A stretch of 64,000 bases of DNA from Chloroflexota bacterium (GTDB lineage Bacteria; Chloroflexota; Limnocylindria; QHBO01): positions 489,141 to 553,140 of the forward strand of contig JBBPIR010000001.1 of the NCBI GenBank assembly GCA_038040195.1, written 5' to 3'. Position 1 is the first letter of the stretch, and the number at the start of each line of letters is the position of its first letter. The position numbers and the translations under genes were made by a program. This document shows, in pieces, positions 33,804-51,516 of the stretch. Below the pieces are notes generated by a model. It did not search any database and was not told where the DNA came from. It saw only the letters and a list, made by a program, of their open reading frames with translations.

Positions 33804-33812
33804 AGACCGATA

Positions 33813-35649: not shown

Positions 35650-36009
35650 ATGGACCAGACCGGGCTGCTCTACGTCCTGGGATTCGGCTTCGCCGCCACG
35701 ACGTTCGTGTTCGGCACGATTCTGTTCTCGTGGCTGATCACGCATCGGCGCAAAGAGGCCCAGAAGGGGCTGCCCTACGAGTGCGGGATCGACACCATCG
35801 GTGACACCTGGTCCCGCTTCGGGCTGGCGTTCTACCTGTACGCCCTGCTGTTCGTGGCCTTCGACGTGGAGATCATCTTCATCTACCTCTGGGCGATCGT
35901 GATTCGCGACCTCACGCTCACCGGCATGATCCTGATGGGGATCTTCCTGGTGGTCCTGATGTACGGCGAGTTCTACGCCTGGAAGAAGGGTGACCTGAAA
36001 TGGCGATAA
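35650..36009 (+). CDS. nuoA: NADH-quinone oxidoreductase subunit A
   Basis: 119 aa, 3 TM helices, PYECG motif. Confidence 0.9.
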
Positions 36010-36629
36010 CAACCGCTCCCCGAGCTGACGAGCCGATCGTCATCCCCGACGCGGCCGGCGACGATCCGCTGCTGGGCGAGTTCGGGATGGAGAACCACCC
36101 CCAGGGTGGGTTCCATGGCCTGCTGGAGGTCATCCCCACCCGGGCCGATTACATCCTGGACCTGATCCGGGCCAACTCGCTGTGGCCGCTCCTGTCCGGC
36201 CTGTCGTGCTGCGCCATCGAGATGATGAGCACCGCCACCAGCGTCAACGACATCGACCGATTCGGGATGTTCCCGTTCCGCGCCTCGCCGCGCCAGGCTG
36301 ACGTCCTGATCGTGGCCGGCACCCTGACCACCAAGATGGCCGGTCCGCTGGTGCGCCTGTGGCAGCAGATGCCGGAGCCCAAGTGGTGCGTCGCCATGGG
36401 CACCTGCACCACCTCCGGCGGACGCTTCAAGCGCAGCTACAGCGTCGTCCAGGGCGTGGACCGGGTCATGCCGGTCGACGTCTACGTGCCGGGTTGCCCG
36501 CCGCGCCCCGAAGGCCTGATCTACGGGCTGATGAAGCTCCAGGAACTGGTCAAGCAACGCCGCGGCCAGTGGGCCACCTATGCCGACCGGGGTCCGGACC
36601 TCCGATCCTGGGAAGGAGACGTGCGCTGA
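36000..36629 (+). CDS. nuoB: NADH-quinone oxidoreductase subunit B
   Basis: 209 aa. N2 ligand pattern SCCAIEM, CVAMGTC, GCPPRP. Confidence 0.95.
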
Positions 36630-37204
36630 GCGCACCGGCCGCGGCGGGCCCGCTGGTCCGGCTGCTGGGCGACCGGCTCGCCGACGCGGCGAGCGAACTG
36701 TGGACCGACGAGGACACGGTCGAGATCCAGGTTCCCCGCGACAAGATCGTCGATTCGCTCCGCACCCTGCGCGACGACGCGGACTTCGGCTTCTTCTTCC
36801 TGGCCGATGCGGCCGCGGTCGACTACGGGGTCGGCAACTGGTTCGAGGTCGTCTACCACCTGTACTCGGACCGCCACCCCACCTGGCTGCGGGTCCGGGT
36901 CAAGGTTGACCGCGAGAATCCGGTGACGCCCAGCATCACCTCGCTGTGGGAAGGGGCGATGTTCCACGAGCGCGAGATGTACGACATGATGGGCATCGTC
37001 TTCGAGGGCAACCGCGACCTGCGGCGGATCTACATGTCGCCGGACTACCGGTCCTTCCCGCAGCGCAAGGACTTCCTGCTCCCCGATGACGCCGCCGATT
37101 CCGCCGCCGCCGGCAACCGCCCGCTGGAGCGGCCCGAGACCTGGGACCTGAGCAAGCTGGCGGACGCCGCCGCGCACCGCGACGAGCCGGGAGGCCCGGT
37201 GTGA
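36626..37204 (+). CDS. nuoC: NADH-quinone oxidoreductase subunit C
   Basis: 30-kDa subunit pattern ([28 protein letters not shown]). No ATG/GTG/TTG is available in frame near the N-terminus. CTG at 36626 overlaps the nuoB stop as CTGA, with GGAAGGAG 7 nt upstream. Confidence 0.8.
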
Positions 37205-38484
37205 CGACCACCAAGCCGCCGCAAGCTGAGGACGCGGAGGAGCCACGCTCCGACGAGCCGCGCATCCCCGACCCGCTGGTATTGGACGCCATGGCCACCG
37301 GCGCGCCGCGCCAGGAGTTCTTCGGCTTCGACATCGTCCCGCCCCCCGACCGGCCGCCCCAGACCGAGCGCGAGCAGGAGGTCTACACCCTCGGCGACGG
37401 CGAAATGCTCGTCAACATGGGCCCCCAGCACCCCTCCACCCACGGCGTGATGCGCCTGGTGGTCAAGGTCCGCGGCGAGGTGGTCATCGACATCGACCCT
37501 GTGCTCGGCTACCTGCACCGAGGGATCGAGAAGCTGTGCGAAGAGGCCACCTACACCACGGTCCTGACCTACGTGGACCCCATGGACTACATGTCGGCCA
37601 TGCACAACGAGCACGCGCCGGCGATCGCGTTCGAGAAGCTGTACGGGATCCAGGCACCGCGCCGGGCGGAGTACATCCGGGCCCTGGTGGTCGAGCTGAA
37701 CCGGGTGTTCAGCCACGGCCTGATGATGGGCTTCCTGGCGCTCGACATCGGCGGCCTGACTCCCATCCTGTACGGCTTCATCAACCGCGACGAGGTGGTC
37801 GAGATGCTGGCCGCCATCTCCGGCCAGCGGATGCTGTTCAACTTCTTCCGAGTGGGCGGCGTGAACTTCGACACCAATGACGAGTTCATGTCGCGCCTCG
37901 GCCGATGGCGGGCCAACGTCCTGGACAACGTCGAGATGAACGAGAAGATCCTGACCGATAACGAGATCTTCCGGGCTCGGACCAGGGGGATGGGCACCCT
38001 GAGCGGCAAGGAAGCGATAGCTCTGGGGGTCAGCGGACCCAATCTGCGGGCCAGCGGGGTGCCGTTCGACGTCCGCAAGGCCCACCCGTACTGCATCTAC
38101 AACGAGCTCGAGTTCGACGTCATCACCCACACCGAGGGCGACACCTATGCCCGCTACATGCAGCGCATCGCGGAGCTGAAGCAGTCCATCCACCTTATCG
38201 ACCAGATCGTGGACAAGATGCCCCACGGCCCGGTCCAGGCCCAGGTGCCGGGGATCATCCGCCCTCGCCCCGGACGCGCCTATGCGGCCATCGAGTCGCC
38301 CCGTGGGCTGTACAGCGTGTACGCCATCAGCGACGGCGGCCCGAACCCGTATCGGTTCCGCATGCGCGACCCGAGCTTCATCAGCCTGCAGGTCATGCCC
38401 AAGCTCATGCCCGGGCACCTCATCGCCGACACCATGGCGATCATGGCCAGCCTGGATCCGATCATGGGCGGCGTGGACAAGTAG
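37201..38484 (+). CDS. nuoD: NADH-quinone oxidoreductase subunit D
   Basis: 427 aa. NMGPQHPSTHGV, and the C-terminal SLDPIMGGVDK. GTGA overlap with nuoC. Confidence 0.95.
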   Translation: MTTTKPPQAEDAEEPRSDEPRIPDPLVLDAMATGAPRQEFFGFDIVPPPDRPPQTEREQEVYTLGDGEMLVNMGPQHPSTHGVMRLVVKVRGEVVIDIDPVLGYLHRGIEKLCEEATYTTVLTYVDPMDYMSAMHNEHAPAIAFEKLYGIQAPRRAEYIRALVVELNRVFSHGLMMGFLALDIGGLTPILYGFINRDEVVEMLAAISGQRMLFNFFRVGGVNFDTNDEFMSRLGRWRANVLDNVEMNEKILTDNEIFRARTRGMGTLSGKEAIALGVSGPNLRASGVPFDVRKAHPYCIYNELEFDVITHTEGDTYARYMQRIAELKQSIHLIDQIVDKMPHGPVQAQVPGIIRPRPGRAYAAIESPRGLYSVYAISDGGPNPYRFRMRDPSFISLQVMPKLMPGHLIADTMAIMASLDPIMGGVDK

Positions 38485-38493
38485 GGGGCCGAA

Positions 38494-39513
38494 ATGGATC
38501 CGGCGACCATCGAAACCCTGCTCGGCGTCGGCCGTTTCGTGGCGGCAACGACCCTGCTGCTGCTGCTGACCGTGCCGACCGCGTTCATCGTGGGCCAGCT
38601 GGAGCTGAAGATCATCGCCCTCATGCAGCTCCGCTACGGCCCCAACCGGGTCGGCCCGCGCGGGATGTTCCAGAGCGCGATCCACGGCTTCAAGATCCTG
38701 GCCAAGGAGGACCAGACGCCGGATCGAGCCGACGTCCCGGTCTTCACCCTGGCGCCGTGGATGGTGTTCATGGCGGCCGCCATGAGCATGCTGGTCATCC
38801 CGTTCGCCCCGGGCCTTGTGGCCTTCGACTCCGACATCGGCGTCATCTACTTCTTCGCCATCATCGGTCTGTCGGTGGTCGGGATGCTGGTCGCCGGTTG
38901 GGCCAGCTACAACAAGTACGCGCTGCTGGGCGGGCTGCGGAGTGCGGCCCAAATGGTCAGCTACGAGATCCCGTTGACCCTGTCCATCGTGGGCGTGGTG
39001 GTCCTGACCGGGACGTTGTCGTTCACCCACATCGTCGAATGGCAGCTGGAGCACGGCTGGGCGGTCATCTGGCAGCTGGTCGGCTTCCCGATCTTCTTCA
39101 TCGCCGCCGCCGCGGAGATCAACCGCACCCCGTTCGACATGGTGGAGGCCGATTCGGAGATCGTGGCCGGCCCGTTCACCGAGTACTCGGGCATGCGATT
39201 CGGTTTCTTCTATTTTGCGGAGTACGTCGCACTTTTCATCATGTGCGGCATCCTGGTCACCCTCTTCTTCGGCGGGTGGCTGGCGCCGTGGCCCTTCCCG
39301 GCCCAGCTGGACGGCTTCGCCGGCACCGTCTACGGCCTGGTCTGGTTCTTCCTGAAGACGTACATCTTCGTGTTCATCGCGATCTGGGTGCGGGCTACCC
39401 TGCCCCGCGTGCGAGTCGACCAGCTCATGGGCATGGCCTGGAAGGCGCTCCTCCCGCTGGCGCTCATCAATCTGTTCGTGACCGCCGCGGTGGTCCTGAT
39501 CTTCAAGCTGTGA
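38494..39513 (+). CDS. nuoH: NADH-quinone oxidoreductase subunit H
   Basis: 339 aa, polytopic. EIVAGPFTEYSGMRFGFFYFAEY motif. It follows nuoD directly, the gene order of 11-subunit-type operons. Confidence 0.95.
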   Translation: MDPATIETLLGVGRFVAATTLLLLLTVPTAFIVGQLELKIIALMQLRYGPNRVGPRGMFQSAIHGFKILAKEDQTPDRADVPVFTLAPWMVFMAAAMSMLVIPFAPGLVAFDSDIGVIYFFAIIGLSVVGMLVAGWASYNKYALLGGLRSAAQMVSYEIPLTLSIVGVVVLTGTLSFTHIVEWQLEHGWAVIWQLVGFPIFFIAAAAEINRTPFDMVEADSEIVAGPFTEYSGMRFGFFYFAEYVALFIMCGILVTLFFGGWLAPWPFPAQLDGFAGTVYGLVWFFLKTYIFVFIAIWVRATLPRVRVDQLMGMAWKALLPLALINLFVTAAVVLIFKL

Positions 39514-39524
39514 TGGCCTGACAC

Positions 39525-40373
39525 ATGGCGATCCCCGGCTCCGGCCTGCTCACCGGCATGGGCGTCACCCTGCGCAACCTCTTCCGCCCCAAGGTGACGC
39601 AGCAGTACCCCGAGGTGCGCCCCGCCATGGCGGAGCGTTGGCGGGGTCGGCTGGACCTGATCTACGACCCGTTCGGGGAGCACAAGTGCGAGGTCTGCTT
39701 CCAGTGCGCCATGGTGTGCCCGGTGGAAGCCATTGACATGAGCGGCTTCGACTCGCAGGGCAACAAGATCCGATACGGGCTGCCCGAGATCTACGACGAG
39801 CGCCGGGACCCCAACGCCTTCCGACGGGCCGGCCTTCCATCCAGACCGATGCGCAACGCGGCGCGCTGGGAGGAAGCGGTAGATGACGCCTGGGTCGACC
39901 AGGTCGTAGATGGATTTGGCGGGCGTCCGGAGTCGCTGGTGGCCATCTTCGTCGCGGTCCAGACCCGATACGGGTACCTGCCCGAGCCCGCGTTGCGCCG
40001 GATCAGCGACAGGATGACGATCCACTGGGCCCAGGTCTTCGGGGCTGCCGGGCTGGGCGGCTTCCGGCTGCTGCCGACCGAGGGGCACCTGGTCACGGTG
40101 TGCGACTGCGCCGCGTGCCGCTTCGCCGGAGGCGACAAGCTCCTGGCGGCCCTGGAGGAGGAGCTGGGGGTACGGGCCGGGGAGACGACCGATGACGGCG
40201 CATTCACCCTGGAGACCGATGCGAGCGTGGGAGCGGGCGCGATTGCGCCGGCGGTGCGGATCGACACCCTGGTATACGGGCCGCTCAACGTCGACGAGGC
40301 ACGCCACCTGATCTACGCCCGGCGGGCGGAGAAGTCCCGCGCCGAGAAGCTCGGCGCCGGGGCGAGCGCCTGA
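39525..40373 (+). CDS. nuoI: Fusion: N-terminal half of NuoI (one 4Fe-4S motif only) + diverged NuoE-like thioredoxin-fold domain
   Basis: 282 aa. Residues 1-~95 are NuoI-like (QYPE...RWRGRLDLIYDPFGEHKCEVCFQCAMVCPVEAIDM). Residues ~120-270 are NuoE-like (VCDCAAC retained; the second Cys pair reads SVGAGAIAP). Confidence 0.8.
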   Translation: MAIPGSGLLTGMGVTLRNLFRPKVTQQYPEVRPAMAERWRGRLDLIYDPFGEHKCEVCFQCAMVCPVEAIDMSGFDSQGNKIRYGLPEIYDERRDPNAFRRAGLPSRPMRNAARWEEAVDDAWVDQVVDGFGGRPESLVAIFVAVQTRYGYLPEPALRRISDRMTIHWAQVFGAAGLGGFRLLPTEGHLVTVCDCAACRFAGGDKLLAALEEELGVRAGETTDDGAFTLETDASVGAGAIAPAVRIDTLVYGPLNVDEARHLIYARRAEKSRAEKLGAGASA

Positions 40374-41719
40374 TGGCGGCCGGCCTCTCCCCGCAGATCC
40401 GGATCCTCCCCGGCGGGGAGCACCGCCTGCTGGCCGGGATCGGGAAGCTGGACCCCGAGTCGCTGGCTGCGTACCGCAAGGCCGGTGGCTACCGCGGCCT
40501 GACCCGCGCCATCACCAAGCTCTCCCCCGACGAGGTCATCACCGAGATCTTCGCGTCCCGCCTCCGCGGCCGAGGGGGCGCTGGGTTCCCGGTGGCCGAC
40601 AAGTGGCGCGCCACCCGTTCCGCCCCCGGTGAGCGGAAGATCGCGGTCGCCAACCTGATGGGCGCCGACCCGACATCGCTGGGGGATCGGGCGCTGGCCG
40701 AGGGCAACCCCCACCTCGTCCTGGAGGGGCTGCTCATCGCCGCCGCCGCGGTGGGGGCCTCGGAGGCCATTCTGGCCGTGCGGCGCGACTGGACCGCGGG
40801 CATCGAGCGCCTCCGCAAGGCGGCGGCGGATGCCGAGGCCGCCCACCTGGCGGGCTACCTCATCCTGGGCACCGACGTATCGGTCCAGGTGTCGGTGTGG
40901 GAAGGCTCCGGCGCCTACGTGGCGGGGGAGGAGACGGCCCTCATCCACGCCCTCCAGGGCGACCGCGGCATGCCGCTCATCCGCCCCCCGTATCCTGCCG
41001 CGCGCGGGCTGTGGGGCGTCCCGACGCTGGTCCACAACGGCGAGACCCTGGCCCACGTGGCCTGGATCCTGGGCCACTCGGCAGGCGACTTTGCCAAGGT
41101 CGGGCCCGAGGAGGCGCCGGGCACCAAGCTGGTCACCATCGCCGGCGCGGTGCGCAACCCGGGTCTGGCGGAGGTCGCGATGGGCACCGTGGTCGCCGAC
41201 ATCGTCAAGCTGGCCGGCGGGTCGACCGGGACCGTGAAAGCCGCGTTCGTGGGTGGACCGGGTGCCGGCGCGCTGGCTGCCAACGAACTGTCTGACACGG
41301 GCTACGAATACGGCGCGCTGGGCGCCGCCGGCGCTCACATCGGTTCGGGATCGGTCCTGGTCACCGACGCCGCCACCTGCATGGTGGCCACCGCCCGCTT
41401 CCTGCTGGACTACTCCGCGCGCGAGGCATGCGGAAAGGCCGTCCCGTGCCGGATCGGTCCGTTGCGGCTGGTTGAGATCCTGGACCGCATCCTGGCCGCC
41501 ACCCCGCGCCCCAACGACCTGGTCCTGCTGCGCGAGCTGTCGGCCAAGATCGCCGACACCGCCCTGTGCCGCCTCGAATCGCTCGCCCCCAAACCCATGC
41601 TCACCACCCTGGATCGCTTCGAGGACGAGTACCGCGCCCACGCCGAGCGGGGCGTTTGCCTGGCGGGCTCGTGCAAGACGGACCCGGTCTCCCCGTTGCT
41701 GGCGCCGCTGGCGTCATAG
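40373..41719 (+). CDS. nuoF: Diverged NuoF-like flavoprotein subunit
   Basis: 448 aa. RLRGRGGAGFP and GSGAYVAGEETAL are conserved. The NADH-pocket loop reads NLMGADPTSLGDR. The N3 motif reads ACGKAVPC, with the middle Cys missing. Confidence 0.8.
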   Translation: MAAGLSPQIRILPGGEHRLLAGIGKLDPESLAAYRKAGGYRGLTRAITKLSPDEVITEIFASRLRGRGGAGFPVADKWRATRSAPGERKIAVANLMGADPTSLGDRALAEGNPHLVLEGLLIAAAAVGASEAILAVRRDWTAGIERLRKAAADAEAAHLAGYLILGTDVSVQVSVWEGSGAYVAGEETALIHALQGDRGMPLIRPPYPAARGLWGVPTLVHNGETLAHVAWILGHSAGDFAKVGPEEAPGTKLVTIAGAVRNPGLAEVAMGTVVADIVKLAGGSTGTVKAAFVGGPGAGALAANELSDTGYEYGALGAAGAHIGSGSVLVTDAATCMVATARFLLDYSAREACGKAVPCRIGPLRLVEILDRILAATPRPNDLVLLRELSAKIADTALCRLESLAPKPMLTTLDRFEDEYRAHAERGVCLAGSCKTDPVSPLLAPLAS

Positions 41720-41729: not shown

Positions 41730-44114
41730 ATGACCTTCGCAGGCAACGGCAACGGGAAAGGCAACAGCAGCATGGTGGGGCCCTTCGAGGACTACGCCCC
41801 CATCTGGCCGGTGGTGCCCGGCACGCGCAAGATTACGGTCACGATCAATGGCCGCCAGGTCCAGGCCGAGGAGGGCCAGACCATCCTCCAGGCCTGTCGG
41901 GTGCTTGGGCTCGAGATCCCCACCCTGTGCTACGAGCCCAAGCTGTCCCCGTACGGTGCCTGCCGGATCTGCGTGGTCGAGGTGGACGGCCAGGACAACA
42001 CGCCCATCTCGTGCGGGACCGACCTCGCCGAGGGGATGGTCATAACCACCCACTCGGAGCGGGTCATCGAGAACCGCCGCCTGGTGCTGGAGCTGATCTT
42101 CTCGGACCACGACGCGTACTGCCTGCCGCCCTGCCAGTTCAAGTGCCCCACCCGGGTCGACATCCCCGGCTACCTGAAAGCCAACGCGGAGGGCAACTGG
42201 GAAGAGGCGACCCGCATCCTGAAGCGCTCGCTCCCCTTCCCGGCCATCCTGGGTCGGGTGTGCCCCGCCCCCTGCGAGACCCACTGCCGGCGCGAAGAGG
42301 TGGACACCGCCATCGCCATCCGCGACTCGCATCGGTACTGCGCCGACCGGGTCCTGGAGGTGGACGCGCCGGCCCCGCTGCCGTGGCCCAAGGAATCGGA
42401 CACCGGGCGCCGGGTGGCGATCGTCGGTTCAGGGCCCGCCGGCATGACGGTGGCCTACTACCTCCAGCTGCGCGGGCATCACTGCGACGTGTTCGAGGCC
42501 GATCCCGAGCAGGGGGGAATGCTCCGCTACGGGATTCCCGAGTACCGCCTGCCCAACGGCTGGATGGACCGCGAGCTGAACCACGTCTGGGAGCTGGGCG
42601 CCACCTTCAAGCCGAACATGCGCCTGGGCCGCGACTTCCACCTGGCCGATCTGGTGGAGCAGGGCTACGACGCCATCTTCGTGGGCATCGGCTGCTACAA
42701 GCCCAACGAGATGGGGATTCCCGGCGAGGACGCCGACGGGACCGTCAACGCGCTGGAGAACCTGTACAACAGCACCCGCGGCATCCCGGTTCCCGCCCTG
42801 AAGGGGGCCAGCGTGGTGGTCATCGGCGGCGGCTTCACGGCCATCGACTGCACCCGGACCTCCCTCCGCCAGGGCGCAGCCGAGGTCAACCTGGTGTACC
42901 GCCGTGACCTGAAGGACATGCCAGCGCAGGACGAGGTCCACGAGGCCGCCGAGGAAGGCGCCAAGGTCACCTTCCAGGCCGCGCCGGTCCGCATCGTGAC
43001 CGATGCCAAGGGCAAGGTGACCGGGGTCGAGTTCCAGAAGATGCACCTGGGCGAGGCCGATGAGAAGGGCCGGCGCCGGCCGGAGCCCATGCCCGGCACC
43101 GAATTCATCATCGAGTGCGACACGGTCCTGGGTGCCATCGGCCAGGGGCCGGAGCTGGCGTGGATCGACTCCGAGCCCGATGAGATCCGCTCCGGGCTGG
43201 AGGTCAGCCGCCAGGGGCGTCTGGTGGCCGATGCGAACACGTTCCGCACAGGCATCCCCAAGATCTTCGCCGCCGGCGACGTGAACCTGGGGGCCACCAC
43301 CGTGGTGGAGGCCATCGGCGACGGTCGGCGGGCGTCGTATGCCATGGACTACTGGCTCCGCGGCCACGACCTGGACGACCCGCAGGTGCGGCGCATGGTG
43401 TCCGAGCCGCAGCCCTCGTTCCTGACCATCGTGCCCTTCACCGACGACGTGAAGGAGCCCCAGGCGGTGATGGGCAAGCTGGGCGCTGAGGAACGGCGCA
43501 CGAACTTCGAAGAGTACGAGCACGGCTACACCCACGACCAGGCCATGGGCGAGGCCGCCCGCTGCCTGCAGTGCACGTGCGAGGCGATTGGCCACTGCGA
43601 CCTGCGCGAGGCGGCCATCGAGTACGAGACCACCCTGAACATGACGATCGACGAGCGGTCGATCCAGGACAACCCGTATGTCGGCATCAACCACGGCTAC
43701 GGCCGGGACGAGACCCACTCGTTCATCCTGCGCGATTACTCGCGCTGCATCGATTGCGGCCGATGCGCCCAGGTGTGCAAGGACATCGTGGGCGCCGGGT
43801 GCTACGACTTCATCGGAAAGGGCTTCGACTCGCTGGTTACGACCGCCGATTACGTCTCGTTGAACGAAACGCCGTGCGTGTCATGCGGGCGGTGCGCGGA
43901 GACGTGCCCGGTGGGGGCGCTCATGCCGCGGCCGCGGATCCTGGAGACGTACCAGCTCGACGTGAGCCGCTGCATCTTCTGCGGCATCTGCGCCGACGCC
44001 TGCCCCTACGACGCGCTCCGCTGCGGCCCGGAGTTTGAGTTCAGCGAGTACCAGCGCGACCTGCCCATGCTCGACATCCTCGAGATGTCCGACCGGGAGC
44101 GCCCCACCCGCTAG
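41730..44114 (+). CDS. Multidomain Fe-S flavoprotein: NuoG-type 2Fe-2S domain + GltD-like FAD/NAD(P)H oxidoreductase + ferredoxin motifs + C-terminal half of NuoI
   Basis: 794 aa, with the ATG at 41730. Motifs are CYEPKLSPYGACRICVVEV...SCGT; CLPPCQFKCP and GRVCPAPCETHC; VAIVGSGPAGMTVAYYL; VVVIGGGFTAIDCTRTSLRQGAAEVNLVYRR; RCIDCGRCAQVC; and CVSCGRCAETCPVGAL. The protein ends with RCIFCGICADACPYDALRCGPEFEFSEYQRDL. No molybdopterin-like domain is present. Confidence 0.8.
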   Translation: MTFAGNGNGKGNSSMVGPFEDYAPIWPVVPGTRKITVTINGRQVQAEEGQTILQACRVLGLEIPTLCYEPKLSPYGACRICVVEVDGQDNTPISCGTDLAEGMVITTHSERVIENRRLVLELIFSDHDAYCLPPCQFKCPTRVDIPGYLKANAEGNWEEATRILKRSLPFPAILGRVCPAPCETHCRREEVDTAIAIRDSHRYCADRVLEVDAPAPLPWPKESDTGRRVAIVGSGPAGMTVAYYLQLRGHHCDVFEADPEQGGMLRYGIPEYRLPNGWMDRELNHVWELGATFKPNMRLGRDFHLADLVEQGYDAIFVGIGCYKPNEMGIPGEDADGTVNALENLYNSTRGIPVPALKGASVVVIGGGFTAIDCTRTSLRQGAAEVNLVYRRDLKDMPAQDEVHEAAEEGAKVTFQAAPVRIVTDAKGKVTGVEFQKMHLGEADEKGRRRPEPMPGTEFIIECDTVLGAIGQGPELAWIDSEPDEIRSGLEVSRQGRLVADANTFRTGIPKIFAAGDVNLGATTVVEAIGDGRRASYAMDYWLRGHDLDDPQVRRMVSEPQPSFLTIVPFTDDVKEPQAVMGKLGAEERRTNFEEYEHGYTHDQAMGEAARCLQCTCEAIGHCDLREAAIEYETTLNMTIDERSIQDNPYVGINHGYGRDETHSFILRDYSRCIDCGRCAQVCKDIVGAGCYDFIGKGFDSLVTTADYVSLNETPCVSCGRCAETCPVGALMPRPRILETYQLDVSRCIFCGICADACPYDALRCGPEFEFSEYQRDLPMLDILEMSDRERPTR

Positions 44115-44155: not shown

Positions 44156-44560
44156 ATGACCGATCTTCCCCAGCAGCCGATCGAGATGATCCTGCTCCGC
44201 CAGCTGTCGGAGCACCTGTCCATTCCGATGTGGGTCATCGACGGCGAGGGGGATCTCGTCTTTTTCAACGAGGCGGCCGAGCCGACCCTCGGCGTGCGGG
44301 CCGACGACGTTGACCAGATGCCGTTCGAGACCTGGACCACGTCCTTCCGGCCCCGGGATCTATCGGGCAATCCGCTGCCGCCCGAGGCGCTGCCCCCGAT
44401 CATCGCGCTGCGAAAGGGGGAACCGGCCCATGCCACGATCGAGATCACGGGCGGGGATGGGGTCGCGCGCCGGATCGGCGTCACCGCCTTCCCGCTGACC
44501 GGCGGCCACGGCGACATCATGGGCTCGGTGACGATGTTCTGGGAGTCCCCCAAGGCGTGA
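44156..44560 (+). CDS. Stand-alone PAS domain protein
   Basis: 134 aa. PAS-like pattern (IPMWVIDGEGDLVFFNEAAEPTLG ... GVARRIGVTAFPL). Located inside the nuo operon. Confidence 0.65.
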   Translation: MTDLPQQPIEMILLRQLSEHLSIPMWVIDGEGDLVFFNEAAEPTLGVRADDVDQMPFETWTTSFRPRDLSGNPLPPEALPPIIALRKGEPAHATIEITGGDGVARRIGVTAFPLTGGHGDIMGSVTMFWESPKA

Positions 44561-45402
44561 TCGTCCGTCTGTGGGGCACCCGCGGGTCGGTGGCGGCCGC
44601 CGGCCCCCAGACCGCGCGCTATGGCGGCAACACGGCCTGCGTGGAGGTGCGCGGCGACGATGGGACGCTGCTCGTCCTCGACGCGGGGACCGGCATCCAG
44701 CGCCTGGGCGCTGAGGTCGCGATGGAGGCGGGGCGGATCGACATCCTGCTGACCCACCTCCACATGGACCACATCCAGGGCCTGGGCTTCTTTGCCCCGA
44801 TCTTTCGCCCCGGCTGCGAGATCCACATCTGGGGTCCGCCCTCGCCGACGCTCCATCTGCGCGCCCGCCTGACGCGCTACCTCTCCCCGCCCCTGTTCCC
44901 CATCCGCTTGCGCGACCTGCGTGCCAACTTCGACTTTCACGATGCTCCACAGGAGCCGTTCCGGATCGGTCCATTCACCATCCTGGCCGATGAGGTCATC
45001 CATCCCGGCGCGACCCTCGGCTTTCGGGTCAGCGAGAACGGCCGTTCCCTGGCCTACCTGAGCGACCACGAGCCGGCGCTCGGGACGGGGAACGGAGATG
45101 GCAACACATCCTGGGTGAGCGGGCTGCGCCTGGCGCGCGGGGCGGACGTGCTCATCCACGACGCCCAATACACGAACGAAGAGCGTGCCGAGCGGCTGGG
45201 CTGGGGCCACTCATCGGTCGGCGAGGCCATTGCCTTCGCGCGCCGCGCCCAGGTCGGCAAGCTGGTCCTGTTCCACCACGATCCGGCACGAACCGACGAT
45301 CAGATGGACGTCCTGGCCATGGCGGCCGCGGACCTGGCCGCGTCCACCGCCAACGGCCTGCAGGTGACCGCCGGGCGCGAGGGCGATCAGCTCTTGCCGT
45401 AG
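44557..45402 (+). CDS. MBL-fold metallo-hydrolase
   Basis: 281 aa. HLHMDHIQG (HxHxDH) and the later LFHHD. 4-nt overlap with the PAS gene. Confidence 0.8.
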   Translation: MIVRLWGTRGSVAAAGPQTARYGGNTACVEVRGDDGTLLVLDAGTGIQRLGAEVAMEAGRIDILLTHLHMDHIQGLGFFAPIFRPGCEIHIWGPPSPTLHLRARLTRYLSPPLFPIRLRDLRANFDFHDAPQEPFRIGPFTILADEVIHPGATLGFRVSENGRSLAYLSDHEPALGTGNGDGNTSWVSGLRLARGADVLIHDAQYTNEERAERLGWGHSSVGEAIAFARRAQVGKLVLFHHDPARTDDQMDVLAMAAADLAASTANGLQVTAGREGDQLLP

Positions 45403-45432: not shown

Positions 45433-45975
45433 GTGAGCGCTCGGTCTCGAACGGGAGCCTCGACTCTGGACATCTCGACCGTCCTCTTCGTGGTGCTCGC
45501 CGCCGGCGTCCTCGGCGGCGGCCTGGCGGCCGTCCTGCTGCGGAACGTGATCCATTCCGCGGTGGCCATGATGGTCTCTTTCGGAGCCCTGGCGGGCACG
45601 TACGCCCTGCTCGGCGCGCCCATCGTGGCCGCCGCCCAGGTCCTCATCTACCTGGGGGCCATCAGCGTCCTGATCCTGTTCGCGATCATGCTGACCCAGG
45701 CCGGCGACGCCAACCTGCCGGCACCTTTCCAGCGCCAGGCGCCGTTCGCGGCCCTGGTCGCCATCGGGATCGTGGCCCTCGTCGGTTGGGCCCTGCTCCA
45801 GACCGACTGGCCCAACCCCAGCGTGATCATCCCGGTCGAGCTCGACGCCCTGGCCGCCGCCCTCTTCAACGACTACGCGCTGCCGTTCGAGATCGTGGGC
45901 TTCCTGTTGCTGGCCGCCATCATCGGCGCCATCTACCTCGCCCGACGGCCCGAAGAAGACGAGCGGATGAACTGA
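45433..45975 (+). CDS. nuoJ: NADH-quinone oxidoreductase subunit J
   Basis: 180 aa, 5 TM helices, NVIHSAVAMMVSF pattern. The GTG start is uncertain and lies in the 3-prime arm of a 9-bp hairpin (45410-45433). Confidence 0.85.
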   Translation: MSARSRTGASTLDISTVLFVVLAAGVLGGGLAAVLLRNVIHSAVAMMVSFGALAGTYALLGAPIVAAAQVLIYLGAISVLILFAIMLTQAGDANLPAPFQRQAPFAALVAIGIVALVGWALLQTDWPNPSVIIPVELDALAAALFNDYALPFEIVGFLLLAAIIGAIYLARRPEEDERMN

Positions 45976-45978
45976 CCG

Positions 45979-46287
45979 ATGGGCCTCAACGGCTACCTGT
46001 TCCTGTCACTCGCCCTGTTCGGGATCGGGGCCTTCGGCTTCCTGGCCCGACGCAACGCGATCATGATGCTGATCTGCATCGAGCTCATGTTGAACGCGGT
46101 CAACCTGGCCCTGGTGGCCTTCAACGCGTTCGATTATTACGCCACCGATGACGCGGGCGCCGTCTTCTCGCTGCTCGTGATGGCCGTCGCGGCAGCCGAG
46201 GCGACGGTCGGCCTGGCCCTGGTCATCGCGATCATCCGCACCCGTCAGACCGCCGAGGTCGACGACTACGCCGATCTGAAGGAGTAA
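45979..46287 (+). CDS. nuoK: NADH-quinone oxidoreductase subunit K
   Basis: 102 aa, 3 TM helices, conserved membrane Glu (ICIELMLNA, AAEATVGLA). Confidence 0.9.
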   Translation: MGLNGYLFLSLALFGIGAFGFLARRNAIMMLICIELMLNAVNLALVAFNAFDYYATDDAGAVFSLLVMAVAAAEATVGLALVIAIIRTRQTAEVDDYADLKE

Positions 46288-46291
46288 CGCG

Positions 46292-48529
46292 CTGGACCTG
46301 CAGTCGCTCGTCGCCCTGATCCCGGCCCTGCCGCTGGCCGGCTTCCTGTTCGCGGTGCTGGTTGGGCCGCGCTTCGACCGCATTCCGGAGCACGCCGAGC
46401 ACGATGACGAGCACGGCGCCGGGGCCGGTCACGACACGGGCGGCGACGCGCACGCCTCCCACGCCGAGGCGGTCGACGAGTCCGGGTACCGCGGCGTCCC
46501 GACCGAGGAGGAGCAGCGCGAGACCTCGCCCCACCGGGGCCACGCCGACGACCTGGCCAACGCCAACGGGGCCGATGGGATCATCCCCGACGAGCTGAAC
46601 GACGGGCGCGGGCAGCCCGGTCACGTGACGCCCGGCGGGCCGCGGCCGGTCTACCGCTCGTGGTGGGTCCCGGTCGCATTGGTGGCCGTGGCCTGGGCCG
46701 CGTCAATGGCCATCTTCGGCGCGGTCATCTTCGGAGGCGCCGAGTACCGGGTCACCGTCTACGAGTGGATCGTGTCGGGTGATTTCCGGATCGAGATCAC
46801 GTTCTTCGTGGACGCGCTGACCGCGGTCCTGCTGCTGGTGGTCAGCACGGTGGGCCTGCTGGTCCACGTCTATTCCATCGGCTACATGGACGGCGACCGC
46901 AGCGTCTGGCGCTTCTTCGCCTACCTGAACCTGTTCATGTTCAGCATGCTGCTGCTGATCCTGGCCGACAACTTCCTGCTCCTGTACGTGGGCTGGGAGG
47001 CGGTCGGCCTGTGCTCGTACCTCCTCATCGGCTACTGGTACAAGAAGCCGTCCGCGGCAGGAGCCGCCAAGAAGGCGTTCATCGTCAACCGGGTCGGCGA
47101 CTTCGGTTTCGGGCTGGGCGTGATCCTGATCTGGACCCTGCTCGGCACGCTGACGTTCGACGAGGTGTTCGCGGGGATCGGCGGCCTCGAGGGCTGGCAG
47201 ATCACCCTCATCGCCCTGCTCCTGTTCGCAGGGGCAGTGGGCAAGAGCGCCCAGTTCCCGCTGCACGTCTGGCTCCCGGACGCGATGGAGGGCCCCACCC
47301 CGGTCAGCGCCCTCATCCACGCCGCGACCATGGTCAACGCCGGGGTGTACCTGGTCGCCCGCGCCAACCCGATCTTTGCCCACTCGCCGGAGGCAATGGG
47401 CGTGGTGGTCGCGATCGGGGTGTTCACCGCCGTCCTGGCGGCGGCCATTGCGGTCACCCAGAACGACATCAAGAAGGTGCTGGCCTACTCGACCGTCAGC
47501 CAGCTGGCGTACATGTTCTTCGGGCTGGGGATCGGGGCCTGGGCGGCGGCCATCTTCCACCTGCTGACCCACGGCTTCTTCAAGGGCCTGCTGTTCATGG
47601 CTTCCGGATCGGTCATCCACGGGGCCGGCGGGGAGCAGGACATGCGCTTCATGGGCGGCCTCCGGGAACGCATGCGCTGGACGTACGGGACCATGCTCGT
47701 GGGGGCCCTGGCGCTGGCCGGGATCCCGATCTTCGCGGGGTTCTTCAGCAAGGACGAGATCCTGTCGGAGGCCTTCGCCCGCGGCTACCCGATCTACTGG
47801 GCGGTGGGCATCGGGGTCGCGTTCCTGACCGCGTTCTACACCTTCCGGATGATCTTCATGACCTTCCACGGCTCGTGGCGCGGGCCGGCGGCCGCCTGGA
47901 AGCACGTCCACGAGAGCGCGCGGACGATGGTCGCGCCGCTCGTCATCCTGGCCGTCCCTACCGCGCTGGCCGGGCTCCTGCTGGGCATTCCGCCCGAGGG
48001 CGGCACGATCCATCTGTGGCTGGAGGAGGTCTTCGCCAGTGCTGAGGGGCTCGGGGCCGGTATCCAGCCCGGCTCGATCCTGGCGGAGGCCATGGAGCAC
48101 GGGGAGGCGCACGGCTTCGAGCTGTTCGGCCTTGGCGGGCTGCTGCTGCTGGCCGGGGCGTCGGTCGGCCTGGCCGGCATCCTGCTCGCCCGGCGCTGGT
48201 ACATCCAGGATCCCGAGGCGCCCGCGCGTTTTGTGGAGCGCTTCCCGTTCGGGCTGGGGCCGGGCATGTACCGGGCCAGCCTGAACAAGTACTACTTCGA
48301 CGACCTGTACCAGCTCATCTTCGCTCGCGGCGGCGTGGTGCTTTCAAATGCCCTGTGGTGGTTCGACGTGAAGGTCATCGACGGGGCGGTGAACGGCGTC
48401 GGCTGGTTGGCCCAGCGCCTGGGCGGCGGGTTGCGCAGGTCCCAGACCGGGCGGGTCCAGAACTACGGATTGGGGATCGCGGCCGGGTTGGTCATCGTCC
48501 TGCTGGTCTATGCCACGGTGGTGCGCTGA
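46292..48529 (+). CDS. nuoL: NADH-quinone oxidoreductase subunit L with a ~93-aa His/Asp/Glu-rich insertion after TM1
   Basis: Antiporter-like core (WEAVGLCSYLLIGYW, SAQFPLHVWLPDAMEGPTPVSALIHAATMV). TM1 (LVALIPALPLAGFLFAVLVG) is only encoded if translation starts at CTG 46292. GAAGGAG lies 7 nt upstream of that codon. Confidence 0.85.
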   Translation: MDLQSLVALIPALPLAGFLFAVLVGPRFDRIPEHAEHDDEHGAGAGHDTGGDAHASHAEAVDESGYRGVPTEEEQRETSPHRGHADDLANANGADGIIPDELNDGRGQPGHVTPGGPRPVYRSWWVPVALVAVAWAASMAIFGAVIFGGAEYRVTVYEWIVSGDFRIEITFFVDALTAVLLLVVSTVGLLVHVYSIGYMDGDRSVWRFFAYLNLFMFSMLLLILADNFLLLYVGWEAVGLCSYLLIGYWYKKPSAAGAAKKAFIVNRVGDFGFGLGVILIWTLLGTLTFDEVFAGIGGLEGWQITLIALLLFAGAVGKSAQFPLHVWLPDAMEGPTPVSALIHAATMVNAGVYLVARANPIFAHSPEAMGVVVAIGVFTAVLAAAIAVTQNDIKKVLAYSTVSQLAYMFFGLGIGAWAAAIFHLLTHGFFKGLLFMASGSVIHGAGGEQDMRFMGGLRERMRWTYGTMLVGALALAGIPIFAGFFSKDEILSEAFARGYPIYWAVGIGVAFLTAFYTFRMIFMTFHGSWRGPAAAWKHVHESARTMVAPLVILAVPTALAGLLLGIPPEGGTIHLWLEEVFASAEGLGAGIQPGSILAEAMEHGEAHGFELFGLGGLLLLAGASVGLAGILLARRWYIQDPEAPARFVERFPFGLGPGMYRASLNKYYFDDLYQLIFARGGVVLSNALWWFDVKVIDGAVNGVGWLAQRLGGGLRRSQTGRVQNYGLGIAAGLVIVLLVYATVVR

Positions 48530-48530
48530 C

Positions 48531-50057
48531 ATGAGCGGCCTGCCGGTGCTGTCGCTGATCGTCTTCACGCCGCTGCTCGGCGTGGCGGCCCTGCTGTTCG
48601 TGCCGGGCACCAACCATCGGCTCATCCGCTGGGTGGCCCTGCTGGCGGCCATGGGAAGCCTGGGCTTCAGCCTATTCCTGGTGGGCTACGACCCCGCCGG
48701 GGCGGAGTTCCAGTTCCGCGAGGACCTTCCCTGGATCAGCGCATTCGGGATCCGCTACCAGCTGGGGGTGGACGGCATGAGCGCAGTGCTGGTGCTGCTC
48801 ACCACGGTCCTGAGCGTGGTCAGCATCCTGTACTCCTGGGGGCCGATCCAGATGCGGGTCAAGGAGTACTACGCCGCGATGCTGCTCCTGATGGCCGGCA
48901 TGCTCGGCGTCTTCGTGGCGCTCGACCTGTTCGTGTTCTACGTTTTTTGGGAGCTGAGCCTGATCCCGATGTACCTGGTGATCGGGATCTGGGGTGGGCC
49001 GCAGCGCATTTACGCCACGCTGAAGTTCGTCATCTACACGCTGGTCGGCTCGCTCCTCATGCTGGTCGCCATCCTGGCCGTGGTCATCGCCAACGCCAAC
49101 CTCCCGGGCGGGACGTTCACGTTCAGCTACGAGGCCCTGCGCGGCGTCCCCTTCCCCGATCTGCTCCAGGCTGGCGCATTCATCGCGTTCGGGCTGGCCT
49201 TTGCCATCAAGGTACCGATGTGGCCGTTCCACACCTGGCTGCCCGATGCTCACGTGGAGGCCCCGACCGCGGGCTCCATCATCCTGGCCGGGGTCCTGCT
49301 CAAGCTGGGCGGCTACGGGTTCCTGCGATTCAGCCTGCCGCTGCTGCCCGACGCGGCCCAGTCCTTCGCGCCGCTCATGATCGGCCTGGCCTTGATCGCC
49401 ATCATGTATGGCGCGCTGGTGGCCATGGTCCAGCCCGATCTGAAGAAGCTGATCGCCTACTCGAGCGTGTCGCACATGGGCTTCGTGATGCTGGGGGCGT
49501 TCGTCTTCAACACCCAGGGCCTGCAGGGCGCGATCTTCCAGATGGTCAGCCACGGGATCACGACCGGCGCCCTGTTCCTCTTGGTGGGCGTCATCTATGA
49601 ACGCACCCACGACCGGCTGATCAGCCACATGGGCGGTCTGAACGCCCGCCTGCCGGCCTACGCCGCCCTGTTCGGGCTGTTCACCTTCGCGAGCATCGGC
49701 TTACCAGGCTTGTCGGGGTTCGTGGGCGAGTTCCTGGTCATGCTCGGCGCTTTCCAGTACTCGGCCTGGGTGGGGGCCTGGGCCATGCTGGTCGTGATAG
49801 CCAGCGCGGTCTACATGCTGTGGATGTTCCAGCGCGCCTTCTTTGCCGTGCCGTCGGACTGGATGCGCCGGGCCTGGGGCGGCCTGCATGACCTGACCCG
49901 GGTCGAGTGGCTGTCGCTGGCCCCACTGGTGGTCCTGGTGGTGGCACTGGGGGTGTTCCCGGCCCCCGTCCTGGAGGCCACCGCCGGGCCGGTGCAGCGC
50001 ATCCTCGACGCGGTCCAGGGCGCCGCGGGGCTCAACCTGGTCGCCTGGCCGTGGTGA
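48531..50057 (+). CDS. nuoM: NADH-quinone oxidoreductase subunit M
   Basis: 508 aa, antiporter-like (FAIKVPMWPFHTWLPDAHVEAPTAGS). The ATG lies 1 nt after the nuoL stop. Confidence 0.95.
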   Translation: MSGLPVLSLIVFTPLLGVAALLFVPGTNHRLIRWVALLAAMGSLGFSLFLVGYDPAGAEFQFREDLPWISAFGIRYQLGVDGMSAVLVLLTTVLSVVSILYSWGPIQMRVKEYYAAMLLLMAGMLGVFVALDLFVFYVFWELSLIPMYLVIGIWGGPQRIYATLKFVIYTLVGSLLMLVAILAVVIANANLPGGTFTFSYEALRGVPFPDLLQAGAFIAFGLAFAIKVPMWPFHTWLPDAHVEAPTAGSIILAGVLLKLGGYGFLRFSLPLLPDAAQSFAPLMIGLALIAIMYGALVAMVQPDLKKLIAYSSVSHMGFVMLGAFVFNTQGLQGAIFQMVSHGITTGALFLLVGVIYERTHDRLISHMGGLNARLPAYAALFGLFTFASIGLPGLSGFVGEFLVMLGAFQYSAWVGAWAMLVVIASAVYMLWMFQRAFFAVPSDWMRRAWGGLHDLTRVEWLSLAPLVVLVVALGVFPAPVLEATAGPVQRILDAVQGAAGLNLVAWPW

Positions 50058-50064
50058 GACCGGT

Positions 50065-51516
50065 ATGAACGACCCCGCGGCGCTGTACGCGCTCCTGCCC
50101 GAGGTGGCCCTGGCCATCTCGGTCCTGGTGATCATCACCGTCGACCTGTTCCTTCCCCGGGAGCGCAAGTGGCTGCTGACCCCGCTGACCGTGGCCGGCC
50201 TGGCGGCCACCGCGCTGGCCATCGGCGCGGTCTGGACCACCCCGCCCAGCGGGGCGTTGGCGGGAGGGGTCTATACCGTGGACCGGCTGGCGCTGGTGCT
50301 GAAGCTGGCGGCGGTCGGTATCGGCGTGTTGACGACCCTGTTCGCGCCGGGCTACCTGGTCGTCCGCCGCCTGCCGTTGGGCGAGTTCAACGCCATCCTG
50401 CTGTTCTCGACCCTGGGCATCTTCGTCCTGGCCAGCAGCGCGGATCTCATCACCCTGTTCCTCGGCCTCGAGCTGATGGTCATGCCAGCCTACCTGCTGG
50501 CCGCCTTCCACAAGACCGATCGGTTCAGCAACGAGGGCGGGCTGAAGTACTTCCTGCTCGGGTCATTTGCGAGCGCCATCCTCCTGTTCGGCATCGCCTG
50601 GACCTACGGCCTGACCGGCTCGACCGTGTTCACCGAGATCGCCGAGGTGTTCTCGGGCGGCTTGATGAACGGGGCGGTGCTGGTGGCGATCGGCTTCCTG
50701 ACCGTGGGGGCGACCTTCAAGGCGGCGGCGGTGCCGTTCCACTTCTGGACTCCGGACGCCTACCAGGGCGCCCCGACGCCCATCACCGGGTTCCTGTCAG
50801 TAGGCCCCAAGCTGGGGGCCTTTGCCCTGCTGCTGCGCCTCTTCGGGGAAGCGCTCGGCCCGTTGCGCACCGACTGGCTGGACGTGTTCGTCGTGCTGGC
50901 GGTGGTGACCATGACGTTTGGCAACGTGGTGGCCCTGACCCAGACCAACGTCAAGCGGATGCTGGCCTACTCCTCGATCGCCCATACCGGCTACATCCTG
51001 GCCGGGCTGGCGGCGTTTGCAGCAGCCACAGATCCAAAGGTTGCCACCGAGGCCATCGAGGCGGTCGTGTTCTACCTGGTCGGCTACTCGGTGATGAACA
51101 TCGCGGCTTTCGCGGTGGTCGGCATGCTGCAGCGCGACGTGCGCCGATACGGCGGATTGGGCTCATTCGCGGGCCTGGCCGGGCGTCAGCCGGCCCTGGC
51201 CGCAGCCATGACCGTCCTGCTCCTGTCGCTGACGGGCATCCCGCCCACGGTCGGGTTCTTTGCCAAGCTGTACGTCCTGCTGACGTCGGTCGACGCGGGC
51301 CTGGCCTGGCTGGCGGTGGCCATCGCCCTGAATGCCGCCCTGGCCGCGTTCTACTACCTGCGGGTGGTGGTCTACATGTACATGCGTGACCCGGAGGCTG
51401 AGCCGGCGGATGTGGAGCGCTCCGGGGTCGGCCGCCTGGCGCTGGGACTCAGCGTGGCCGGCGTGCTCCTGCTCGGCATCTTCCCCGGCATCCTGCTCGG
51501 GTGGCTGCCGGCTTGA
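50065..51516 (+). CDS. nuoN: NADH-quinone oxidoreductase subunit N
   Basis: 483 aa (FKAAAVPFHFWTPDAYQGAPTPITGF). Confidence 0.95.
   Translation: MNDPAALYALLPEVALAISVLVIITVDLFLPRERKWLLTPLTVAGLAATALAIGAVWTTPPSGALAGGVYTVDRLALVLKLAAVGIGVLTTLFAPGYLVVRRLPLGEFNAILLFSTLGIFVLASSADLITLFLGLELMVMPAYLLAAFHKTDRFSNEGGLKYFLLGSFASAILLFGIAWTYGLTGSTVFTEIAEVFSGGLMNGAVLVAIGFLTVGATFKAAAVPFHFWTPDAYQGAPTPITGFLSVGPKLGAFALLLRLFGEALGPLRTDWLDVFVVLAVVTMTFGNVVALTQTNVKRMLAYSSIAHTGYILAGLAAFAAATDPKVATEAIEAVVFYLVGYSVMNIAAFAVVGMLQRDVRRYGGLGSFAGLAGRQPALAAAMTVLLLSLTGIPPTVGFFAKLYVLLTSVDAGLAWLAVAIALNAALAAFYYLRVVVYMYMRDPEAEPADVERSGVGRLALGLSVAGVLLLGIFPGILLGWLPA

Follow-up and report, generated by a model that had tools for sequence, protein, structure and literature searches.

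A 64,000-nucleotide stretch of DNA from a Chloroflexota bacterium of the Limnocylindria (hereafter the window: positions 489,141 to 553,140 of the forward strand of contig JBBPIR010000001.1, assembly GCA_038040195.1) contains a complex I (nuo) operon into which another enzyme has apparently been built. By profile matches, a cassette of three genes resembling nfnCBA, from the transhydrogenases of the Bfu type, sits in frame within nuoI, in the loop between the two cysteine motifs of the protein. The minimal bifurcation site of Bfu enzymes is the flavobicluster B1-FMN-C1, where FMN stands for flavin mononucleotide (Li et al. 2025, PMC11829005). In the window this flavobicluster is not intact: the clusters that have lost cysteine ligands are exactly B1, which lost one, and C1, which lost two. 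Taking origin, electron route and side branch together, we favour with modest confidence the reading that the locus encodes a non-bifurcating, complex-I-type NADPH:quinone oxidoreductase built on a cut-down, domesticated Nfn module.

An nfnCBA-like cassette within nuoI

The operon has no separate nuoI gene. The N-terminal part of a 282-residue protein, which we call I'-E, matches positions 1-72 of the 121 positions of the NuoI profile TIGR01971 and aligns with TYKY/Nqo9 as far as the inter-motif loop, its first-motif segment being invariant in 22 genomes. The last 59 residues of a 794-residue protein two genes downstream, the A-I'' fusion, match positions 71-112. When the two halves are joined in silico they align end to end with TYKY/Nqo9 (E = 1e-23). 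The three genes can be placed inside nuoI because these two matches flank the cassette and together rebuild a full NuoI. Neither polypeptide carries both CxxCxxCxxxCP motifs, as TIGR01971 demands of a NuoI, and the equivalog cut-off is also missed. About 32 residues link the NuoI N-half to the E-like domain. This linker is strongly conserved in the clade, matched nothing in the databases, and may serve for docking in place of the missing C-terminal domain of NuoG.

A first-pass annotation of the locus had read the E-like and F-like proteins against NuoE and NuoF. We found that NfnC, NfnB and NfnA of the NfnABC/StnABC enzymes are the better comparators. Among solved structures, all three proteins come closest to the Nfn-type C, B and A subunits (9bov, 8oh5 and 9n5u), with respiratory NuoE, NuoF and NuoG far lower; for the F-like protein the E-values are 1e-113 against NfnB/StnB and 1e-78 against NuoF. 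All three proteins stay below every NCBIfam equivalog cut-off for NuoE, NuoF, NuoG and NuoI. The F-like protein scores 325.3 bits on TIGR01959 (cut-off 558.65) and fails the other NuoF equivalogs too, and the E-like domain scores 61.8 on TIGR01958 (cut-off 142.4). The nearest relatives in genomes do not exceed 47% identity; they share the C-B-A gene order and a GltD-inserted A subunit. On these comparisons the E-like and F-like proteins descend from NfnC and NfnB of Bfu-type transhydrogenases and not from respiratory NuoE and NuoF.

The cassette is cut down. The F-like protein has the Pfam domains Complex1_51K, SLBB and NADH_4Fe-4S, i.e. a Rossmann/FMN domain, an SLBB domain and the four-helix B1 domain, and it aligns only to residues 107-525 of the 584-residue NfnB. 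The N-terminal thioredoxin-like domain (B5) and the C-terminal domain with two [4Fe-4S] clusters (B3/B4) are missing, so that the protein falls short of a Bfu BC core. It stops 14 residues past the last B2 cysteine and is 448 residues long, versus 584-630 in BfuB-type proteins.

Residues 33-758 of the A-I'' fusion align to residues 2-699 of NfnA (9bov_A, E = 6e-169), and Pfam recognises in this protein a [2Fe-2S] domain (Fer2_4), the GltD-type pair Fer4_20 and Pyr_redox_2, and 4Fe-4S dicluster domains. As in an Nfn-type BfuA, a GltD-type domain lies inside a HydA/NuoG-like Fe-S domain and all cluster cysteines are present: the 22 cysteines conserved among NfnA-like proteins (clusters A1-A4, A6 and A7) are all invariant in the clade, as are the motif GxGxxG for flavin adenine dinucleotide (FAD) and the NADPH motif GGGxxAxD...YRR. 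The protein departs from that type in lacking the Fdh-like domain with cluster A5, whose place right after A4 is taken by the NuoI C-half, and in the replacement of the A7 lysine. This ligand is Lys170 in NfnA of Caldicellulosiruptor saccharolyticus (Csac) and a lysine in all 11 NfnA-like proteins compared. All 15 clade proteins compared have His201 instead, with a new invariant cysteine, Cys204, three residues later (residues 201-204 are encoded at 42330-42341). It is the sole change noted in the cluster sites of the A chain. The histidine and cysteine may re-ligate the first cluster after FAD; mutation of the A7 lysine ligand impairs Stn (PMC11829005).

Cofactor sites of the E-like and F-like proteins

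Columns were set by gap-free local alignment (pairwise, with HMMER) to solved chains, NfnC/HydC for the E-like domain (with codon positions checked) and NfnB/StnB for the F-like protein. The clade comprises 119 F and 22 E sequences and the outgroup 141 proteins for F columns and 58 for E columns. The possibility that cysteines or acidic residues had merely been shifted by indels was discarded: the alignments are gap-free across all motifs and leave no room for an indel rescue, hence the missing residues are truly missing.

The thioredoxin-like fold of the E-like domain is clear (PF01257 at residues 125-263, 87.8 bits for a cut-off of 24.8), with NfnC (9bov_C) as best match in the PDB. Yet only two of the four cysteines of the canonical NuoE set (Cx4C ... 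Cx3C) are there. The first pair, Cys193 and Cys198, is invariant in the clade. Where the canonical second pair reads aClGcCslAP the window reads aSvGaGaiAP, and both cysteines are gone: position 234 is Asp, Ser or Asn and position 238 is Gly in 22/22 clade sequences, versus Cys in 58/58 outgroup proteins at both. The first-pass annotation had seen this loss and the intact first pair in VTVCDCAAC. It overlooked the additional cysteine within that motif, Cys195, which is present in all 22 clade sequences where 55 of 58 outgroup proteins have Gly. Three invariant cysteines, one of them new, with Asp, Ser or Asn at the old Cys234 suggest a hypothetical re-ligated metal site. There is precedent for zinc replacing a cluster in the same enzyme family, in B2 and B5 of Csac NfnB (PMC11829005).

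The F-like protein shows a similar combination of losses and gains. Only three of the four cysteines of the N3 set (CxxCxxC...C) are present: CGKCxxC aligns with CGKAVPC, and position 356 is Ala in 119/119 clade proteins versus Cys in 141/141 of the outgroup. The distal Cys399 is kept. Both had been noted before, without the neighbouring changes: three residues past the distal cysteine, position 402 is Glu in the whole clade versus Gly in 136/141 outgroup proteins, and Gly400 has become Arg, Lys, Gln or His. In homologues, the backbone of the loop with Gly after the distal cysteine contacts pyrophosphate waters (PMC9299107). CxxA/GxxC is the standard motif of [3Fe-4S] ferredoxins (PMC6237146), and CGKAVPC...C399 has the corresponding Ala at the second cysteine. 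Glu402 may in turn be a replacement ligand. As hypotheses, B1 may thus be a [3Fe-4S] cluster or a [4Fe-4S] cluster held by three cysteines and Glu402. The residues of the B2 site, three cysteines and one histidine, are found throughout the clade (100%) and in about 89 of 141 outgroup proteins. They would form a putative metal site here; in Bfu enzymes B2 is a 3Cys-1His zinc site (PMC11829005).

Around the flavin the picture is mixed. The Gly-rich loop RGRGGAGFP, called intact in the first-pass annotation, is indeed so: Gly66, Arg67, Gly68, Gly69 and Gly71 are fixed in the clade and residue 72 is Phe or Tyr, giving the form RGRGG(A/S)G(F/Y)P. In the nucleotide-binding segment GSGAYVAGEETAL, also called intact, the GEETAL motif is invariant, but the cysteine that precedes GEE is Ala184 (119/119; Cys in 104/141 outgroup proteins). 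The acidic pocket is altered, as had been claimed. The Bfu form NADEGDPGAFMDR is column-aligned with NLMGADPTSLGDR, so that NADEG has become NLMGA, and the loop no longer conforms to the complex I form NADE(S/G)EPGxFKDR. Position 97 is Gly or Ala in the clade versus Glu in 128/141 outgroup proteins, and position 96 is Met in 117/119 versus Asp or Glu in 117/141; Glu95 is fully conserved in complex I (PMC9299107). The new motif is itself conserved in the clade, as NLM[GA]ADP[TS][SA]LGDR. Asn221 has become Gln or His.

Overall, 81 F positions show at least 85% conservation in the outgroup, and the clade has kept and fixed 66 of them; by comparison, 50% of all F sites are at least 95% conserved within the clade. 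Five have switched and become fixed (Y135A, G236S, S352A, C356A and G402E) and ten are relaxed, including Glu97, Gly101 and Asn221. The retained residues include the Gly-rich loop, Lys77, Glu186/Glu187, Asn222/Glu224/Thr225 and the adenine-stacking aromatics. With FMN and NADH contacts taken from PMC9299107, PMC11677225 and PMC11829005, the NADH contacts of NfnB (Phe159, Lys164, Glu274, Phe294 and Gly156; PMC11829005) are all kept here, as residue 72 (Phe/Tyr), Lys77, Glu187, Tyr207 and Gly69. Altered residues are confined to the isoalloxazine/nicotinamide and B1 side of the pocket, in the area of the Glu95-Ser96-Glu97 triad and Asp103 (PMC9299107, PMC11677225) and in the Gly loop past the distal cysteine. 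The F-like site is therefore probably not entirely dead, and we predict that the F/E remnant probably still binds FMN and NAD(H). Glu187 (NuoF Glu183 in E. coli) is the residue that we take to disfavour NADPH in complex I.

Distribution and selection

The ligand changes are fixed in a narrow clade. All 119 full-length homologues of the F-like protein carry them (at least 69% identity to the protein of the window), they are present in 22-23 Limnocylindria genomes, and they are absent from the 141 outgroup F proteins. When 185,579 species genomes were scanned, the type turned up at 23 loci with at least 68% identity, all of them in Candidatus Limnocylindria and related metagenome-assembled genomes (MAGs) of Chloroflexota; the next matches, Bfu-type proteins of anaerobes, drop to 46% identity or less. 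Among 1.84 billion cluster representatives, the type has one full-length representative plus fragments, and intermediates between the clade and ordinary Bfu proteins were not found at about 47% to 66% identity. Three of the loci with the Limnocylindria-type operon (L003, L016 and L018) come from MAGs labelled Pleomorphomonadaceae or Steroidobacteraceae, i.e. Proteobacteria. Given 71-95% identity and identical synteny, this most likely reflects an error of binning or taxonomy and not horizontal transfer.

The first-pass annotation spoke of erosion, and had proposed checking whether close homologues share the substitutions. They do, in 119/119 F proteins for Ala356 and 22/22 E domains for positions 234 and 238, and erosion is not the right word for them. 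Pairwise ratios of non-synonymous to synonymous substitution rates (dN/dS; Nei-Gojobori) are 0.08-0.33 for the F-like gene and 0 to 0.35 for the other nuo genes in the same pairs. Since dN/dS is low and the substitutions are clade-fixed, with new motifs conserved and most ancestral positions kept, the changes are not decay. The co-fixed gains, Cys195 in E and Glu402 beside the distal cysteine in F, point to remodelling. Relaxed selection or a pseudogene is ruled out by dN/dS, and chance or sequencing error by the clade-wide fixation.

Still, a relative rise in the rate of the F-like gene is real. At depth, the F-like protein is 68-74% identical versus 83-88% for the GltD fusion, and it lies 6-18 identity points below A in every locus under 90% identity. 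In genuine NfnABC loci B is more conserved than A in 35/36 pairs, an order that is inverted in Limnocylindria, where no gene of the operon is less conserved than the F-like one.

Electron route and alternative readings

From the observed homology, architecture, ligand changes, fixation and selection regime we infer cofactor occupancy, electron route and donor specificity as follows. The three nfnCBA genes would have been inserted as a block into nuoI in an ancestor of the class Limnocylindria. The ferredoxin-side domain B3/B4 and the domain B5 would then have been lost, along with two canonical cysteines of the C1 [2Fe-2S] site and the middle cysteine of the B1 [4Fe-4S] site, and the acidic residues beside the flavin replaced, stripping the module of what bifurcation needs. 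In Bfu enzymes, electrons follow the path FAD-A7-A6-A3-A2-A1-[B1-FMN-C1]-B3-B4-ferredoxin, with A2-A4-A5 as a dead-end remnant branch (PMC11829005). The losses at B1 and C1, the deletion of B3-B5, the intact cysteines of the A chain and the NuoI C-half placed after A4 suggest a different exit. NADPH would reduce the FAD of the GltD-type domain, and electrons would pass through A7, A6, A3 and A2 to A4, then through the two NuoI clusters, contributed by two polypeptides, to N2 and quinone, driving proton pumping. The old A2-A4 remnant would thus be re-used as the way out, leaving A1-B1-FMN as a side branch off A2 via A1. The F/E remnant would dock and tether the module, the E-like domain being covalently joined to the NuoI N-half, which is our proposed reason for the purifying selection on it.

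The first-pass annotation had anticipated part of this. Its view that the canonical arrangement of FMN with N3 and N1a is altered is supported by the lost ligands. Its suggestion that electrons may functionally enter at the GltD FAD site is now the best-supported reading, given the 22 intact cysteines and the FAD and NADPH motifs, and we regard this domain as the best-preserved candidate entry.

Several points weigh against our proposal. The route, which structures of homologues (Csac NfnABC and complex I) suggest, is extrapolated from them. The conserved FMN/NADH loops and Glu187 would fit equally well an F-like protein working as an NADH entry, even the main one. The A7 lysine is a histidine here, so that the FAD branch is not untouched either. 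Finally, an NADPH-only enzyme would be physiologically odd if it were the sole NADH dehydrogenase of these genomes. A bolder version, which we put forward tentatively and think somewhat less likely to be right than wrong, is a natural proton-pumping NADPH:quinone complex I with NuoI made of two polypeptides, in which ligand swaps (C356A with G402E; loss of Cys238 with gain of Cys195) would have turned B1-FMN-C1 into a non-bifurcating site of higher potential, where NADH could enter as a second donor or electrons could be buffered. If this were true, the reversed enzyme would be an NADP+ reductase driven by the proton-motive force.

The strongest rival, possible but rather unlikely in our judgement, is an enzyme with two donors or one working mainly on NADH. 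The F-like protein would hold FMN and oxidise NADH through a modified B1, [3Fe-4S] or Cys3Glu, into A1-A2; the GltD/FAD part would admit electrons from NADPH as an auxiliary donor or, with electron flow reversed, be an exit that reduces NADP+. All that the substitutions would then do is retune potentials, with the acidic residues gone and the cluster potential raised, in a one-way non-bifurcating enzyme. This is consistent with the pocket being invariant or conservatively varied across some 30% divergence (Gly-rich loop, Lys77, Asn94, Asp105/Arg106, GEETAL, Asn222/Glu224/Thr225 and residues 72 and Tyr207), with the conservation of the new flavin-side motif and the low dN/dS of the F-like gene, and with the co-fixation of C356A and G402E, which resembles a ligand swap. 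Besides, B1 joins B to A in non-bifurcating homologues (PMC9304861). It sits badly with the F-like gene being the least or joint-least conserved and with the inverted order of B and A. It also has to accommodate the replacement of Glu97, a residue fully conserved in complex I (PMC9299107), of Asp/Glu96, Cys184 and Asn221, and the loss of the canonical C1 ligands.

It is improbable that the F-like and E-like proteins are devoid of redox cofactors and only dock the NfnA-like subunit on the Q-module. Ligand loss at B1 and C1, the altered flavin-side loop and the raised relative rate of the F-like gene speak for such a pure scaffold, and the family has already replaced clusters by structural zinc, in B2 and B5 of Csac NfnB. 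But the residues held invariant include some that bind ligands rather than serve folding (Lys77, Glu186/Glu187, Asn94 and Arg106), and so are the three remaining B1 cysteines in 119 sequences and the three cysteines of the E-loop in 22. This counts against a scaffold because a cofactor-free site should have drifted at 30% divergence.

Very unlikely, in turn, is a still bifurcating or confurcating Nuo-Bfu enzyme using NADH and ferredoxin (or NADPH, NAD and quinone). BfuABC-like genes do lie in the middle of a nuo operon, like those of the predicted Nuo-Bfu class (PMC9304861), but the F-like protein lacks B3/B4 and B5, C1 lacks two ligands and B1 one. Deletion of B3/B4 abolishes bifurcation in HydABC, and non-bifurcating homologues are devoid of B2-B5 (PMC11829005, PMC9304861). 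Lastly, the locus might have decayed recently or become a pseudogene, or an assembly error or frameshift might have produced its odd features. This reading, which has nothing but the unusual motifs to recommend it, is effectively refuted by intact reading frames, by dN/dS well below 1, and by the recurrence of this architecture and these substitutions at 23 independent MAG loci (one of them on a closed chromosome of 2.09 Mb) and in 119 proteins from databases.

Relation to known enzymes and implications

The closest described enzymes are NfnABC and StnABC (Csac NfnABC, 9bov; Sporomusa ovata StnABC, 8oh5; the archaeal Nfn-Bfu, 9n5u), at about 45% identity at most. They share with the cassette the C-B-A gene order, a GltD-type domain in a HydA/NuoG-like A subunit with all A1-A4, A6 and A7 cysteines, and a B core with the Gly-rich loop, GEETAL and the residues of the B2 zinc site. 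Unlike them, the Limnocylindria enzyme is predicted to be membrane-anchored and lies inside a nuo operon. Its B subunit is devoid of B5 and B3/B4, with CxxAxxC and a neighbouring Glu402 at B1 and NLM(G/A)A for NADEG; its C1 site has two cysteines fewer and one more; its A7 lysine is a histidine; and half of NuoI replaces the Fdh-like domain and A5.

Nuo-Bfu is a class predicted by Schut et al. 2022 (PMC9304861), e.g. in Geobacter sulfurreducens, in which a BfuABC-type module likewise takes the place of NuoEFG mid complex I operon. In contrast with the Limnocylindria locus, it has a complete BfuBC core (B1-B5 and C1) with predicted confurcation of NADH and ferredoxin (PMC9304861), an A subunit that is not Nfn/GltD-type, and a separate and intact NuoI. 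The Limnocylindria B subunit would have been missed by that survey because a ferredoxin-type domain, lacking here, was required in BfuB.

The canonical N-module (NuoE/NuoF/NuoG; Nqo2/Nqo1/Nqo3) resembles the cassette in the E and F folds, the FMN/NADH loop motifs and the N-terminal [2Fe-2S]-plus-[4Fe-4S] part of G, and the Q- and P-modules alongside it are ordinary ones (NuoA-D, H and J-N). The Limnocylindria proteins differ in failing the NCBIfam cut-offs, in the missing N1a and N3 ligands and absent Glu95, in the lack of the NuoG C-terminal domain, in the extra FAD/NADPH domain and in the split and fused NuoI.

In Mbx-like/Thermotoga-type operons a GltD-like flavoprotein stands beside NuoI or in its place (Degli Esposti 2015, PMC4758237), so that there too a GltD-type NAD(P)H flavoprotein meets a complex-I-like membrane module. 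Those operons are, however, of the Mrp/Mbx type and not the quinone type, and they have neither NfnB/C remnants nor a split NuoI. It is the only case of GltD with complex I that we found in the literature. We found nothing relevant on complex I or NADH dehydrogenase of Limnocylindria, nor any description of this architecture.

To our knowledge, the electrons of all characterised complexes I come from NADH via NuoF or, where there are only 11 subunits, from ferredoxin or F420, and the use of NADPH by complex I has so far only been engineered. The locus shows that the input module of complex I can be exchanged by in-frame insertion into its ferredoxin-fold subunit, and the altered B1 and C1 amount to a natural knock-out and rewiring experiment on the bifurcation site of Bfu enzymes. 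Metagenomes of freshwater and soil are rich in Limnocylindria, and metabolic models therefore need to get the main respiratory dehydrogenase of this class right. At present, automated annotation calls the proteins NuoE, NuoF or 'FAD-dependent oxidoreductase', and their database names are generic: NAD(P)H-dependent oxidoreductase subunit E, FAD-dependent oxidoreductase, and 'NADH-ubiquinone oxidoreductase-F iron-sulfur binding region domain-containing protein'.

Layout of the locus

The features of the operon are given in the table. The order nuoABCDH-[I'E]-F-[A-I'']-JKLMN is common to 23 Limnocylindria loci. The Q- and P-modules of complex I are complete, with NuoA, B, C, D, H, J, K, L, M and N, the tandem-cysteine motif of N2 and the quinone-site His and Tyr of NuoD. 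The stop codon of I'-E overlaps the start of the F-like gene at 40371-40375 (TGATG), which implies translational coupling.

Table. Positions in the window of the nuo genes, the cassette and its cofactor sites
Feature	Position	Strand	Remarks
nuoA	35650-36009	+	open reading frame/Pfam
nuoB	36000-36629	+	tandem-Cys N2 motif LSCCAIE
nuoC	end at 37204	+	open reading frame/Pfam
nuoD	37201-38484	+	quinone-site motifs HPxxHG (GPQHPSTHG) and GYLH (GYLHRG)
nuoH	38494-39513	+	
nuoA-nuoH block	35650..39513	+	
I'-E fusion	39525-40373	+	282 residues; NuoI N-half + E-like domain
NuoI N-half	39525..39782	+	residues 1-86 of I'-E; first CxxCxxCxxxCP motif: C55, C58, C61, C65
Linker	39783..39878	+	residues 87-118 of I'-E; clade consensus PEIYDER.DPNA.RRAG...PMRN.ARW
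E-like domain	39879..40373	+	thioredoxin-like, PF01257; remodelled C1/N1a site
F-like protein	40373-41719	+	448 residues; NfnB/NuoF-like core
Gly-rich FMN/NADH loop	40565..40591	+	RGRGGAGFP, kept
Flavin/nicotinamide-side loop	40652..40690	+	NLMGADPTSLGDR, remodelled; canonical Bfu form NADEGDPGAFMDR
Nucleotide-binding segment	40904..40942	+	GSGAYVAGEETAL; GEETAL kept, pre-GEE Cys is Ala184
B2 zinc-site residues	41378..41674	+	C336, H423, C429, C434, retained
B1/N3 motif	41426..41449	+	ACGKAVPC (CxxAxxC); middle Cys replaced by A356
Distal B1 ligand loop	41561..41581	+	ALCRLES; Cys399 kept
A-I'' fusion	41730-44114	+	794 residues; NfnA/GltD-like + NuoI C-half
NfnA/StnC-like subunit	41730..43934	+	A1 [2Fe-2S]; GltD-type FAD/NADPH domain with A6/A7; clusters A2, A3, A4
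NuoI C-half	43935..44114	+	end of the NfnA-like protein; second CxxCxxCxxxCP motif: C748, C751, C754, C758
nuoJ, nuoK, nuoL, nuoM, nuoN	45433..51513	+	open reading frame/Pfam

Between the GltD fusion and nuoJ, at 44156-45402, lie two genes that overlap by 4 nucleotides, a small one with a PAS domain and one of the MBL fold (Lactamase_B_2). The pair is seen in the window and at loci L002, L003, L005, L007, L008 and L020, and was not detected at the deeper-branching loci L012, L013, L014, L021 and L022. Directly upstream of nuoA, 33459-35551 holds a gene for a cyclic-di-AMP receptor (PF06153), a DinB_2-family gene and an open reading frame of 360 codons with no Pfam match. Near the start of the window, 986-3421 encodes an 812-residue protein with DAO, FAO_M, GCV_T and GCV_T_C domains, of the dimethylglycine/sarcosine dehydrogenase type, whose gene adjoins one of the APH/choline-kinase family (22-1002).

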